A stretch of DNA of 64,000 bases from Escherichia phage 308Ecol101PP (OR062945.1), one strand, 5' to 3'. Counted from the first letter of the stretch, positions 15,742 to 63,247 are shown. Notes: generated by a model from the sequence alone, not told the origin. Made by a program: numbers and translations.

Positions 15742-16230
15742 ATGAATATATTTGAAATGCTTCGTAATGACGAAGGTCTTAGACTGACTTTATACAAAGA
15801 CACTGAAGGCTTTTGGACAATTGGCATAGGTCATTTAGTAACAAAGAACCCGTCTTTAGCTGTAGCTAAAGCTGAACTTGACAGAATGATCGGGCGTAAA
15901 TGCAACGGTACAATTACCCTTGATGAGGCTGAAAAGTTATTTAATGAAGACGTTGATAAAGCTGTTCGCGGAATCTTGGGTAATGTTAAACTTAAACCGG
16001 TATATGATTCTTTAGATGCGGTTCGTCGATGTGCATTGGTCAATATGGTCTTCCAAATGGGTGTAGCAGGCGTCGCTGGTTTTACTAATTCTCTTCGTAT
16101 GCTTCAACAGAAACGTTGGGATGAAGCGGCAGTAAATCTAGCACAATCTAAATGGTATCGTCAGACACCTAATCGCGCGAAACGCGTAATCTCAACATTT
16201 AAAACAGGAACTTGGAAAGCGTATATATGA
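15742..16230 (+). CDS. e: Endolysin (T4 lysozyme e)
   Basis: [32 protein letters not shown]...[27 protein letters not shown]: near-complete match to T4 lysozyme. Confidence 0.95.
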
Positions 16231-18663: not shown

Positions 18664-19026
18664 ATGAAAGCATATCAAATTCTTGAAGGCACACACAAAG
18701 GCACTATTTATTTTGAAGACGGTACTCAAGCCCGGATTATTGTCTCTAAGACTTTTAAAGAAGACGCTATTGTAGACCCGGAAATTTTCTACGGTTTGAA
18801 TGCCCGTGAAATTGAAATTGAACATCAACCTAAAGTTAAAATTGAAGGTGGTCAACACCTGAACGTTAACGTTCTGCGTCGTGAAACTCTGGAAGATGCA
18901 GTTAAGCATCCGGAAAAATATCCGCAGCTGACCATCCGTGTATCTGGTTATGCAGTTCGCTTTAACTCTCTTACTCCAGAACAGCAGCGCGACGTTATCG
19001 CTCGTACCTTTACTGAGAGTCTATAA
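18664..19026 (+). CDS. grcA: Autonomous glycyl radical cofactor (GrcA/YfiD; T4 Y06I-like)
   Basis: C-terminal ...[60 protein letters not shown] with RVSGY glycyl-radical motif; matches E. coli GrcA as I recall it. Confidence 0.85.
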
Positions 19027-19229
19027 TGGCTAAATTGATTATAGAAGGGACTGAAGATGTTTTAAAATGTTTTGCCGCCTGGTTTAGTTGCTCAGGCGAG
19101 CAATCATTCATTGAAGCATTTAGAATGGGTGATATTACTGGAAAATATCCGTCAACCGATATCACTGTACGCGGATATGGTATTAATGAGCCTATCCAAT
19201 TGGTCGAATATGACCCTTGCCACCGATGA
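19026..19229 (+). CDS. Hypothetical protein
   Basis: TAATG overlap with grcA-like gene; 67 aa. Confidence 0.5.
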   Translation: MAKLIIEGTEDVLKCFAAWFSCSGEQSFIEAFRMGDITGKYPSTDITVRGYGINEPIQLVEYDPCHR

Positions 19230-19240
19230 GGAAATTCCTT

Positions 19241-19507
19241 ATGTCGATTGAAGACATCAAAGGCTACAAGCCACATACCAATGATAAAATCAGTAAAGTG
19301 AACGCTATTAAAGACGCAGAAGTCCGTCTTGGATTGATGTTTGATGCTCTGATTGAAGAAGCATATATCTTGAAAGAAAATGAATCAGAGCAACAAACCA
19401 AAGAAGATATGGATGCAGTGCAGGCTCTTAAGTATGCTAAGCAACATCTAAAAGAAGCCAGCATGTGGGCATGTCGTGCAGTATTTCGACCTGAGGAAAA
19501 ATACTAA
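19241..19507 (+). CDS. Hypothetical protein
   Basis: SD GAGGAAA then ATG 19241. Confidence 0.55.
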   Translation: MSIEDIKGYKPHTNDKISKVNAIKDAEVRLGLMFDALIEEAYILKENESEQQTKEDMDAVQALKYAKQHLKEASMWACRAVFRPEEKY

Positions 19508-19722
19508 TGGCTTCTACTATTACTGGGTTATTGGACTTTCAAGAAAAGGTCAACAAAATTTGTAGTGAATACTTAAAGTATCTTGAAGAAGACCTTGAAG
19601 ATTGTAAGGAAGAAGGCGAAGAAGACTATGCTGACCAGCGTCGTCGCCAAATCGAAGAGATGAGGCATTTCGCCGATATGGTATCTAAAGAATCTTGGGC
19701 TTTAACTCCATTTTATCAATAA
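19507..19722 (+). CDS. Hypothetical acidic protein
   Basis: TAATG overlap; 71 aa. Confidence 0.55.
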   Translation: MASTITGLLDFQEKVNKICSEYLKYLEEDLEDCKEEGEEDYADQRRRQIEEMRHFADMVSKESWALTPFYQ

Positions 19723-19783: not shown

Positions 19784-20242
19784 ATGACTATCAATTCAGA
19801 CGTTTTTATCCGCCGCAATAAACTCCGTCGAATCTTTGAAACGGAGTTCCGCAAAATAAATGCCGGTATAAAAGATGCTGCAAAGTCTCTTGGACTACCA
19901 GGCTTTCATATCAAGTATTCTCAACATCTCTTAGATCGTGCCATCCAGAGAGAAATAGATGAGAACTACGTTTTTGAATTATTTCGTAAAGTAAAAAATC
20001 ATGTTAAAGAAGTTGCAGAATTTTTATCAATGCCGGCACGTCCAGATGTTGATGAAGATTTTGTCGAAGGTGTCGAATACCGTCCAGGCCGTTTAGAAAT
20101 AACTGACGGAAATCTTTGGTTAGGACTTACAGTTTGTCGCGAAAATCCAGCATTCAAAATGAAGACTCTTCAATGCAGAATGGCTATTATTAACAGTAAA
20201 CGACTACCAGGAAAAGCTTCTAAAGCAGTGATTAAAATCTAG
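19784..20242 (+). CDS. regB: RegB-like endoribonuclease (tentative)
   Basis: 152 aa (T4 RegB is 153 aa); lies between denV and tk as regB does in T4; promoter cassette 19727; call rests on size, position and partial recall of the sequence. Confidence 0.55.
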   Translation: MTINSDVFIRRNKLRRIFETEFRKINAGIKDAAKSLGLPGFHIKYSQHLLDRAIQREIDENYVFELFRKVKNHVKEVAEFLSMPARPDVDEDFVEGVEYRPGRLEITDGNLWLGLTVCRENPAFKMKTLQCRMAIINSKRLPGKASKAVIKI

Positions 20243-20250
20243 AGGTAAAC

Positions 20251-20793
20251 ATGAGAAAAGCACTACTCGCTGGTCTATTTGCTCTTTCATTATCAGCACA
20301 TAGCTCCGAGCATACTTTTAGTAATGTCCAACTCGATAACTTGAATTATGCTTATCAGTTTGGGGAACAGTTTTCTAAGGACGGAAAATTTAAAACGCAT
20401 GAAAATATGCATAAGAAAGGACTTGGATACATAATGGCCGCAATACTATGGCAGGAATCATCTGCCGGTATTAATCTTAAAGATAAGAAAGGTCACCATG
20501 CGTATGGAATGTTCCAAAATTATCTACCAACAATGAGGGCAAGAATTAACCAGCTTGGTTATAATATGACTGATGCCCAAATTAAGAAAATGCTATCTAA
20601 GCGGTCTAATTCAGCCAGATGGGCTTATATCGAATTTTCTTATTGGTTAAATATACATAATGGGGATATAAGAAAAGCTATATCCTCATATAATGCGGGA
20701 TGGAAGACAAGTGCTGGAAGTAAATATGCTTCTGAAGTCCTAGAAAAGGCTAATTACCTTAAATCAAACAAACTACTGGAAATAAAAGAATGA
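20251..20793 (+). CDS. Secreted lytic-transglycosylase-like (SLT-domain) protein
   Basis: N-terminal signal peptide MRKALLAGLFALSLSAHS; ...AILWQESSAG...AYGMFQ resembles the SLT catalytic E-S ... G-x-x-Q motif. Confidence 0.6.
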   Translation: MRKALLAGLFALSLSAHSSEHTFSNVQLDNLNYAYQFGEQFSKDGKFKTHENMHKKGLGYIMAAILWQESSAGINLKDKKGHHAYGMFQNYLPTMRARINQLGYNMTDAQIKKMLSKRSNSARWAYIEFSYWLNIHNGDIRKAISSYNAGWKTSAGSKYASEVLEKANYLKSNKLLEIKE

Positions 20794-21137
20794 CCAAAAT
20801 GTTGGCTTTAATAGTTGGCTTGGTTTCATTTAACGCTCTTGCTAATACTACATATACTGATGTAACGGAGTATACAAACAGAACAGCGTCTGATTATTGT
20901 GGTAAAAGTCAAGAGTGTAAAGTAGATTTTTCACAAAAATTGTTATATGCGTATAAAGACGGAGAAAAAGATGGGGCGTCTAGTAGGTTCAAGGCGTCTA
21001 CCTTAATTAAAAGATACTATAAAAAATGGCAAATATTAGAATGCTCGGTGGCGGAACCTAAAGATAAGGCAGCATGCAATTCTATGGTGGACCGTCTAGT
21101 TGACTCTTATACTAGAGGACTTGCAGCAAGTGATTAA
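20790..21137 (+). CDS. Secreted small protein
   Basis: Signal peptide MTKMLALIVGLVSFNALA; ATGA overlap. Confidence 0.6.
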   Translation: MTKMLALIVGLVSFNALANTTYTDVTEYTNRTASDYCGKSQECKVDFSQKLLYAYKDGEKDGASSRFKASTLIKRYYKKWQILECSVAEPKDKAACNSMVDRLVDSYTRGLAASD

Positions 21138-21597
21138 AAACTATATCAAGGGCGATATTGTCGCCCTGTTTTCTAAAGGTAATAATATCGCTCATGGGTG
21201 TAATTGTTTTCATACAATGGGCGCCGGCGTGGCAGGACAATTAGCAAAGGCTTATCCAAAAATTCTGGAAGCCGATAAACTTCAAACCGAATTTGGAGAC
21301 GAGTCTAAACTCGGGACTTATTCGGTTTATGAAAAATATTTTAAGACCCATAAAGCTTATTGCTTTAATCTTTATACACAGTTTGAGCCTGGACCTAATT
21401 TTGAGTACTATGCTTTAATGAATTGTATAATAGAATTAAATGAATTCGGAAAGAATAAGATAACAAAGCCTGTACTTTATATGCCAAGAATTGGTGCAGG
21501 TATCGGTGGCGGAAACTGGGATGTCATCGAAGAGATTTTAGATACGTATTCCACTAAACTAGAAATTGTGATTGTTGATTGGGAACCATTATTATGA
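21100..21597 (+). CDS. Macro-domain protein (ADP-ribose binding / hydrolase candidate)
   Basis: GDIVALFSKGNNIAHGCNCFHTMGAGVAGQL and YMPRIGAGIGGGNW resemble macro-domain Gly-rich loops; start uncertain (ATG 21100 overlaps upstream gene; GTG 21130 possible). Confidence 0.6.
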   Translation: MTLILEDLQQVIKNYIKGDIVALFSKGNNIAHGCNCFHTMGAGVAGQLAKAYPKILEADKLQTEFGDESKLGTYSVYEKYFKTHKAYCFNLYTQFEPGPNFEYYALMNCIIELNEFGKNKITKPVLYMPRIGAGIGGGNWDVIEEILDTYSTKLEIVIVDWEPLL

Positions 21598-22197: not shown

Positions 22198-22779
22198 ATG
22201 GCTAGTTTAATTTTTACATATGCCGCTATGAACGCTGGTAAGTCTGCTTCATTACTTACTGCCGCACATAACTATAAAGAACGTGGCATGGGTGTATTAG
22301 TTCTTAAACCGGCTATTGATACTCGCGATTCAAAAGGTGAAATAGTCTCTCGTATTGGTATTCGTCAGGACGCCAATATAATTACAAAAGACATGGATAT
22401 CTTTGAATTCTATAAATGGGCTGCAGCACAAAAGGATATTCATTGTGTATTTGTTGACGAAGCTCAGTTCTTAACTACTGAAAAGGTGTATCAACTTAGT
22501 CGTATTGTTGACGTATACAATGTGCCGGTAATGGCATATGGACTACGAACAGATTTTAAAGGTAATCTATTTGAAGGTTCTCAAGCATTAATGGCTATTG
22601 CCGATAAGCTTGTTGAACTTAAAGGTGTCTGTCATTGTGGTAAAAAGGCCACAATGGTAGCTAGAGTCACGGAAGACGGACTTCCAATTACGGATGGCAG
22701 TCAAATTGAAATTGGTGATACCGATAGATATGTGTCATTATGCCGGAAGCATTGGAATGATTTGACAGGGTTGTTATAA
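22198..22779 (+). CDS. tk: Thymidine kinase
   Basis: MASLIFTYAAMNAGKSASLL P-loop; ...VDEAQFL...CHCGKKATM... typical TK. Confidence 0.95.
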   Translation: MASLIFTYAAMNAGKSASLLTAAHNYKERGMGVLVLKPAIDTRDSKGEIVSRIGIRQDANIITKDMDIFEFYKWAAAQKDIHCVFVDEAQFLTTEKVYQLSRIVDVYNVPVMAYGLRTDFKGNLFEGSQALMAIADKLVELKGVCHCGKKATMVARVTEDGLPITDGSQIEIGDTDRYVSLCRKHWNDLTGLL

Positions 22780-26473: not shown

Positions 26474-26737
26474 ATGAAAAAATTGGTAATTGGTTTATTC
26501 GCAGTAATGATGGCATTCTCTGTTGGTGCTACCACGGGTGCAGCCGGCGGTAACCAGTCTTCTGGGCCTTCTAATGGTTCGGTAAATGCATCACATTCTC
26601 AGGGTATTGAGAACATTAAATCAAGCTATATTAATAGCACGGCCGGACAAGCAACTGAAGCATGGTCAAAGGGACGAGTAGTTACTCGCTCCGTATTCTG
26701 TGATATGCCTAATTATGTTGCTAAGTGCGATAAGTAA
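26474..26737 (+). CDS. Secreted small protein
   Basis: Signal peptide MKKLVIGLFAVMMAFSVGA; terminator at 26742. Confidence 0.6.
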   Translation: MKKLVIGLFAVMMAFSVGATTGAAGGNQSSGPSNGSVNASHSQGIENIKSSYINSTAGQATEAWSKGRVVTRSVFCDMPNYVAKCDK

Positions 26738-62211: not shown

Positions 62212-62580
62212 ATGAAAAAATTAATCGCTTTAGCAATGGTATTTGGATTAACCGGATGTGGTGCCCATGGCTTTATCCCTAATAACGTTGGCCAATTGAT
62301 TTACAATCCGAATGTTAAACAATATGAACAACCTAAAGTTGAAGTGGAAGACCCGGTTACTGTAGGTAATCGAATGATTCAAGCTGATGCCCATGCTCAA
62401 CGTTATCGTGACTCTGATACTGTAGCTGTGTCAAAGGAACAGCGCGTTAAAGAACATTGCTTACAGGCTACTGAAATCGCATTCATTCGCTATGTTGAAA
62501 CAACCGGTAAAGAGCCTACCCAGAAACAAATCGCGAATAACTACGTCCAGTGTATTGAACGTTTAAACAAATTTAATTAA
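62212..62580 (+). CDS. Lipoprotein
   Basis: MKKLIALAMVFGLTGC signal peptide with lipobox; promoter 62154. Confidence 0.6.
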   Translation: MKKLIALAMVFGLTGCGAHGFIPNNVGQLIYNPNVKQYEQPKVEVEDPVTVGNRMIQADAHAQRYRDSDTVAVSKEQRVKEHCLQATEIAFIRYVETTGKEPTQKQIANNYVQCIERLNKFN

Positions 62581-62953: not shown

Positions 62954-63247
62954 ATGAAAAAGTTATCATTGGCAGCAATCTTACTCGCAGTATCATGTGC
63001 ACCAGCTCCAGTTACGGCAGGTTATGATAAAGACCTCTGTGAGTGGTCAATGACTGCAAATCAAGAAGATGTTGAACAACAAATCTTCTCTGATATCATG
63101 AACATCACTAAACGAGACCGTCCTAATATGGTTAATAAAGTTGTTGAACAACTTAAGTCCGGTGGTATCATGCAGTACAATTATGTTTTGTATTGTGACC
63201 CTAATTTCGATAACAAAGATATCGTAACCGAAATCACAGGTGAATAA
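62954..63247 (+). CDS. Lipoprotein
   Basis: MKKLSLAAILLAVSC signal peptide with lipobox; promoter cassette 62895. Confidence 0.6.
   Translation: MKKLSLAAILLAVSCAPAPVTAGYDKDLCEWSMTANQEDVEQQIFSDIMNITKRDRPNMVNKVVEQLKSGGIMQYNYVLYCDPNFDNKDIVTEITGE

Follow-up and report, generated by a model that had tools for sequence, protein, structure and literature searches.

Two overlapping early genes of a T-even phage, the orthologs of T4 vs.1 and vs, appear to make up an exported module in which Vs.1 would act as a transglycosylase on host murein and Vs would serve as its periplasmic partner in the same pathway. To this reading as a whole, which begins with Sec-dependent export of both proteins, we give a little more belief than doubt. 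Its new point is that the predicted export of Vs conflicts with the universal annotation of this protein as a cytoplasmic valyl-tRNA synthetase modifier. The DNA analysed, hereafter the window, is a stretch of 64,000 nucleotides from Escherichia phage 308Ecol101PP (OR062945.1); the features discussed below are collected in Table 1.

Table 1. Features of the vs.1-vs region of the window, and Vs.1-like genes of three other phages
Feature	Sequence	Position	Strand	Remarks
Endolysin e	window	about 15742-16230		separate from vs.1-vs; without signal peptide
vs.6 ortholog	window	18664-19026	+	120 aa; stand-alone glycyl-radical domain, RVSGY motif; Pfam Gly_radical 2e-18
vs.4 ortholog	window	19217-19507	+	Acb2/Tad1 hairpin domain, 4e-17
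regB (endoribonuclease)	window	19784..20242	+	Pfam REGB_T4 8.8e-69; directly upstream of vs.1
Shine-Dalgarno AGAGG of vs.1	window	20241..20245	+	5 nt upstream of ATG; direct sequence reading
vs.1 ortholog	window	20251..20793	+	180-aa precursor; predicted exported SLT/GH23-like lytic transglycosylase
Vs.1 Sec signal peptide (predicted)	window	20251..20304	+	aa 1-18; cleavage after A16 or S18 (LSAHS then SEH)
E69-S70 codons (E-S motif)	window	20455..20460	+	predicted catalytic Glu; E69 invariant, aligned to T7 gp16 E37
G86-M-F-Q-N90 codons (motif II, GLMQ-like)	window	20506..20520	+	G86, Q89, N90 invariant
S146-Y-N-A-G150 codons (motif III, AYNAG-like)	window	20686..20700	+	Y147, N148, G150 invariant
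ATGA overlap, vs start / vs.1 stop	window	20790..20793	+	translational coupling, from sequence
vs ortholog	window	20790..21137	+	115-aa precursor; annotated 'valyl-tRNA synthetase modifier'; predicted exported, four-helix, four conserved Cys
Vs Sec signal peptide (predicted)	window	20790..20843	+	aa 1-18; cleavage NALA then NTT
Mature Vs (predicted)	window	20844..21134	+	97 aa, 11.0 kDa, pI 8.3
tk.4 macro-domain gene	window	21130..21597	+	Pfam Macro 1.5e-5; PHROG 335
tk (thymidine kinase)	window	22198-22779	+	Pfam TK 7.3e-57
Vs.1-like gene	Salmonella phage GEC_vB_NS7	2408-2956		no Vs homolog nearby
Vs.1-like gene	Klebsiella phage Menlow	2408-3025		no Vs homolog nearby
Vs.1-like gene	Vibrio phage 1.244.A	2429-2944		no Vs homolog nearby

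The vs.1 and vs genes in their early region

The window comes from an RB69-like (Mosigvirus) T-even phage: between positions 19700 and 21700 it shares 99% identity with Escherichia phage vB_VIPECOMC06, and many Mosigvirus genomes match there at about 98.5%. An earlier note on this DNA had described two + strand ORFs here, and both are intact. The product of the first is 83% identical to T4 Vs.1 (P13311; PHROG 600, 3.7e-67) and that of the second 67% identical to T4 Vs (P13310; PHROG 1256, 5e-35), with a precomputed Pfam family, PF26829, listed for Vs homologs. These identities make the pair the named T4 genes vs.1-vs, and the ORFs are real, overlapping + strand orthologs of them; the order regB-vs.1-vs-tk.4-tk is also that of T4 (NC_000866). 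Start and stop overlap in both phages, by 8 nt in T4 and by 4 nt in the RB69/Mosigvirus version of the window, and there is no substantive difference between the two arrangements. At the level of sequence, the overlap shows vs.1 and vs to be translationally coupled.

Both genes had long been catalogued in T4, so that finding them again, although correct, adds little in itself. In fact, the SLT likeness of vs.1 has been in print since 2006, so the novelty of that part is low: Nolan et al. (PMC1524935) reported a marginal SLT match of vs.1 orthologs, cited earlier PSI-BLAST results and guessed that vs.1 has 'some role in cell lysis', and some Vs.1 homologs are already labelled 'transglycosylase SLT domain-containing protein' in public records. 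The earlier note's picture of an SLT-like, apparently exported, early product stands, but the T4 names of the genes and the published likeness had escaped it. As to timing, early transcription runs along the + strand of the window, and for both T4 genes the RNA is early and the protein is detected in the middle period (PMC9697503 supplement).

Several neighbours carry recognisable domains. The vs.6 ortholog resembles the GrcA/YfiD 'spare part' proteins and, superficially, a detached NrdD C-terminus, and the Acb2/Tad1 domain of the vs.4 ortholog belongs to a cyclic-nucleotide sponge family that counters CBASS/Thoeris. On the other side of the pair, T4 tk.4 is AdfM, an anti-DarTG2 factor (HIDEN-SEQ preprint, 10.1101/2025.11.20.689424). 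For the window we place the tk.4 start at a T4-like GTG (21130) that overlaps the vs stop and has GAGGA upstream; a mechanical ORF list gave a TTG at 21100. A GC-rich, terminator-like hairpin with a T-run lies at 21149-21167 (+), directly after vs and just within the tk.4 start, but it may be there by chance, because such sites are as numerous in the region as in shuffled sequence. A promoter and terminator scan of the region gave counts no higher than those of shuffled sequence.

Transposon insertion counts set the pair apart from this neighbourhood. In T4 grown in LB, the mean HIDEN-SEQ count was 26.6 for vs and 22.6 for vs.1 against 179-652 for the neighbours, and in Bas37 it was 23.5 and 73.8, respectively, against 324-619; insertions in the two genes are rarer than in the neighbours by about 7- to 29-fold (T4, LB) and 4- to 26-fold (Bas37). 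Thus, vs.1-vs is the only fitness-relevant spot in an otherwise dispensable block. In M9-glucose, vs is the most depleted of all T4 genes (log2 fold change -2.19, padj 0), vs.1 is at -0.87 (p 0.0055, padj 0.16), vs.3-vs.8 and tk.4 remain at about 0 and regB reaches +1.17, and a T4 vs deletion plates poorly on this medium (10.1101/2025.11.20.689424). The vs.1 transposon phenotype could arise through polarity on vs. Lower phage fitness, more marked in minimal medium, is the only phenotype on record, and our literature search found no enzymatic or localisation experiment for Vs.1 or Vs.

Vs.1 and the family-1 transglycosylases

Vs.1 has the motifs and the predicted fold of a family-1 (SLT/GH23) lytic transglycosylase, and from these we infer enzymatic activity. 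The window member itself matches Pfam SLT (PF01464) at 18.8 bits (E 1.3e-3), below the gathering cut-off of 21.3 bits; within the family, the domain is detected in 43 of 49 members at E<=0.01 (best E 1.3e-7), and several homologs carry precomputed PF01464 matches. Residues E69, S71, G86, Q89, N90, Y147, N148, G150 and Y159 are invariant in the 49 sequences. The motif order of family-1 transglycosylases, E-S, then G-x-x-Q, then Y-N-x-G, is present: the E-S ... G-x-x-Q motif pointed out in the earlier note corresponds to E69-S70(-S71) and G86-M-F-Q89-N90, and Y147-N-A-G150 can be added to it.

An hhalign comparison with the N-terminal domain of T7 gp16 pairs WQES with WTES, GMFQ with GMMQ and SYNAG with AYNQG (26% identity, 88 columns). 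It places E69 on E37 of the gp16 WTES motif, which we take to be the catalytic residue of the T7 protein. The Vs.1 HMM gave no alignment when run against the single T7 gp16 sequence. The AF2 model of Vs.1 (pLDDT 88, pTM 0.81) adopts a helical lysozyme-like fold, and its meaningful Foldseek matches in the PDB are confined to GH23 and lysozyme-like structures, among them a Ralstonia GH23 chitinase, MltD and Slt of P. aeruginosa, phi6 P5 and T7 gp16. The statistics are modest among the best 24 PDB matches (E 0.015-0.9, TM 0.4-0.56), and these 24 consist of 22 GH23/SLT-type enzymes and 2 fungal muramidases. By sequence, the Vs.1 profile retrieved nothing significant from the PDB: EtgA is a weak match at E 0.9 and goose lysozyme follows at E 0.94. 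The metacaspase rows that top this search are chance matches. A plasmid search with Vs.1 gave no match; therefore, Vs.1 is not close to the transglycosylases of conjugative systems.

The motif order and the predicted helical lysozyme-like fold are shared with the family-1/GH23 enzymes Slt70 of E. coli and Slt and MltD of P. aeruginosa (PF01464). Unlike these, Vs.1 consists of one small domain, with a pair of N-terminal helices peculiar to its family (F23, Q27, N30, A34 and G38 conserved) and without a superhelical, LysM or lipoprotein module; it is phage-encoded and early, and the Pfam similarity of the window member is near or below threshold. The N-terminal domain of T7 gp16 and phi6 P5, both recovered in the fold search, have SLT-type catalytic motifs in common with Vs.1, but they are particle components for entry and have no signal peptide (phi6 P5 also acts at lysis), whereas Vs.1 is non-structural, early and predicted to be Sec-exported.

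Proteins of this type are found beyond the T4-like phages. Vs.1-like SLT proteins with about 30% identity, the same motifs and predicted export occur in Felixounavirus, Ackermannviridae and a Vibrio phage; they have extra N- and C-terminal Cys, and the Vibrio phage protein is, as predicted from its sequence, a lipoprotein. In Felixounavirus the gene, annotated 'lysin', comes directly behind rIIA/rIIB, with pnk and the spanin genes close by.

Predicted export and the location of Vs

Signal peptides were judged by our own hydrophobicity and -3/-1 rule. The N-terminus of Vs.1, MRKALLAGLFALSLSAHS followed by SEH, has a positive n-region, then a core of about 13 hydrophobic residues, and carries small side chains at -3/-1; that of Vs, MTKMLALIVGLVSFNALA followed by NT, is likewise basic at its start, with about 11-13 hydrophobic core residues and again small ones at the two positions before the cleavage site. 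When loosened, the rule picks out 15 of the window's 210 ORFs that start with ATG and encode 50 aa or more, and only about 6 of these look classically exported or like lipoproteins. Further classical export signals are seen in small + strand ORFs at 26474-26737, 62212-62580 and 62954-63247, one of them with MKKLVIGLFAVMMAFSVGA followed by TT and two with lipobox-like sites (LTGC, VSC).

Conservation of the predicted signals is a stronger argument for export than a rule applied to single sequences. Across 49 Vs.1 and 47 distinct Vs homologs, taken from phages of Escherichia, Klebsiella, Serratia, Proteus, Acinetobacter and others, the export signal is kept in character and not in sequence, and a signal peptide is predicted in every one of the 47 Vs proteins. 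The signal peptides that the earlier note had seen on both products are thus a property of the two families. In four CC31-like loci, Vs, encoded just downstream of vs.1, carries a lipobox, LSGC (ALSGC then K), and the 'valyl-tRNA synthetase modifier' of these phages is therefore predicted to be a membrane-anchored lipoprotein.

The AF2 model of mature Vs (pLDDT 89) is a four-helix bundle. Its Cys, at precursor positions 37, 43, 85 and 96 with the conserved spacing CX5C … CX9-10C, sit at helix ends in the model, flanking loops 1 and 3, a pattern expected of a disulfide-stabilised secreted protein; alternatively, they may form a zinc site. Compared with Pfam, NCBIfam and the PDB, by sequence and by fold, Vs has no informative relative, and it shows no sequence or fold similarity to the known lysozyme/transglycosylase inhibitors Spackle, Ivy, MliC/PliC, PliG and LprI/DUF1311. 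A lead towards the lysozyme inhibitors DUF1311/LprI (3gi7) did not rise above chance and was dropped. An exhaustive phmmer search of 1.8 billion representatives returned 7 matches, phage Vs fragments or relatives with the exception of a marginal one to a 378-aa protein (E 2.6e-4 over 32 residues), and no bacterial family related to Vs; 795 phage records match it. Among its neighbours Vs is the fastest-evolving, with a mean pairwise distance of 0.59 against 0.32 for Vs.1.

We followed the linkage of the two genes in 72 loci, 70 viral loci retrieved through Vs.1 together with T4 and SA79RD. A Vs homolog is adjacent to vs.1 or within about 1.2 kb downstream of it in 66 of the 72 T4-like loci, and the vs start usually falls -7 to +8 nt from the vs.1 stop. 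In eight RB43/RB16-like loci, one or two unrelated ORFs lie between the genes; in these phages an additional N-terminal stretch of about 40 residues comes behind the Vs.1 signal peptide, and vs has a small transmembrane ORF after it. In the Aeromonas T4-like phages and in two contigs of about 306-310 kb, Vs.1 is present with no Vs homolog nearby, and none was found near the Vs.1-like gene of Felix-O1-like (Felixounavirus) and Vi1-like (Ackermannviridae) phages. Because Vs.1-like genes occur without a nearby Vs, Vs is not obligatory for Vs.1. In a distance-matrix (mirror-tree) comparison, Vs.1 and Vs correlate with r 0.74, which is not above the 0.84 of Vs.1 and RegB, so there is no specific signal of Vs.1-Vs co-evolution.

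Where, then, does Vs act? As a tentative proposal, the vs ORF may encode not, or not only, a ValRS modifier but a disulfide-bonded periplasmic protein that would form a functional pair with Vs.1, for instance by holding it back or guiding it, and that would be a lipoprotein in some phages. The classical position is that Vs is a cytoplasmic tau factor that binds host ValRS, its N-terminus being used for no export or for partial export, that only Vs.1 belongs to the envelope and that the adjacency of the genes is mere conserved gene order. It draws on the missing co-evolution signal, on an annotation, 'valyl-tRNA synthetase modifier', that is universal, and on the 11-13 kDa of mature and precursor Vs, close to the size of about 10 kDa that the ValRS-modifying factor is said to have had in 1977. 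Depletion of vs in minimal medium would fit it as well, since amino-acid supply and translation become limiting there, and Vs is classically defined by ValRS binding, the function given for it in PMC8076793 with reference to Muller & Marchin 1975/1977. In that same paper, however, the His-tagged T4 protein, made at full length, was not soluble in the cytoplasm of E. coli, and a cytoplasmic residence sits poorly with an n-h-c signal architecture kept in 47 of 47 distinct homologs despite sequence drift, with the lipobox Cys of the CC31-like homologs and with four invariant Cys whose place at helix ends is that seen in secreted proteins stabilised by disulfides. The tight translational coupling of vs to the gene of a predicted exported enzyme speaks against it too, and primary evidence tying vs mutations to this ORF was not found in a search that the original papers lay outside. 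We regard the classical position as rather unlikely: the predicted export, lipobox orthologs and four Cys included, argues against cytoplasmic residence, and Vs is probably not a cytoplasmic factor.

If Vs is periplasmic, the minimal-medium defect of vs mutants would be an envelope phenotype, and a different gene for the true tau factor, or some route from Vs to ValRS, would have to exist. In the literature covered, short of the first papers on vs and of Miller's 2003 review, we found no discussion of the predicted export of Vs against its cytoplasmic ValRS target.

A proposed role before lysis

To explain these observations together we propose that Vs.1 is exported by the Sec pathway and cleaved by signal peptidase, and that the mature protein (18.7 kDa, calculated for the predicted processed form) would cut MurNAc-GlcNAc bonds of the host murein from the periplasmic side, before lysis. 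The effect would be limited remodelling of the wall rather than lysis, because lysis still requires the holin t and the endolysin e. Vs (11 kDa, probably with two disulfides) would enter the same compartment and pathway, where it would most likely modulate or restrain Vs.1 or share its envelope target. The concept of a periplasmic muralytic enzyme with a small exported controller is shared with EtgA-EscI of type III secretion, T4 Spackle and gp5 lysozyme, and Ivy-MltB. Superinfection exclusion, wall remodelling and periplasmic anti-defence, the functions floated in the earlier note, were guesses, and neither exclusion nor anti-defence is specifically favoured here.

Could Vs.1 instead assist or back up lysis, as an endolysin exported through Sec, with Vs as its lysis-timing regulator? 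A muralytic-type domain behind an export signal invites this thought, as do the rI lysis-inhibition genes 2 kb downstream of vs.1-vs in the window and the 'lysin' label of the Felixounavirus homolog near pnk and spanin genes. Signal-peptide/SAR endolysins such as P1 Lyz are Sec-exported muralytic enzymes whose export is holin-independent; they are products of late lysis genes and have a T4-lysozyme-like fold. Vs.1 would be like them in being a Sec-exported muralytic enzyme, but it is early, SLT-type and encoded beside a complete t/e/spanin set. Nor does its N-terminus behave as a SAR sequence: the core of about 13 residues is followed by cleavage-type sites, AHS/LSA, of the AxS/AxA kind and looks cleavable, unlike a SAR anchor. 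The HIDEN-SEQ libraries of T4 contain hardly any insertions in e and t (means 2.5 and 0), and Vs.1 therefore cannot replace e, which the earlier note had correctly set apart as a separate endolysin gene. Because the genes are early, not late, and e and t are still required, a back-up endolysin is very unlikely; the lysis role in Nolan et al. (PMC1524935) was itself a guess. Least probable of all is a catalytically dead Vs.1, a murein-binding module or scaffold with a vestigial SLT likeness, for although the SLT sequence similarity is marginal in many members, the residues invariant in the 49 sequences, whose identity falls to about 40%, are exactly those of the catalytic-groove motifs, Y159 included, and the motifs persist where identity is only about 30%, in the homologs from Felixounavirus and Ackermannviridae.

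The proposal of an exported module acting before lysis reaches beyond this one phage. Vs.1-type transglycosylases, with predicted export, are conserved among the early genes of phages like T4, Felix-O1 and Vi1, and their disruption costs fitness. The label 'valyl-tRNA synthetase modifier' has meanwhile spread to many hundreds of genomes on the basis of 1970s biochemistry, and once the location of Vs is settled, either a widely copied annotation would be put right or a protein with an uncommon dual localisation would come to light. If the proposal is true, the host murein is modified by the phage long before lysis, which would add a new piece to the biology of host takeover.
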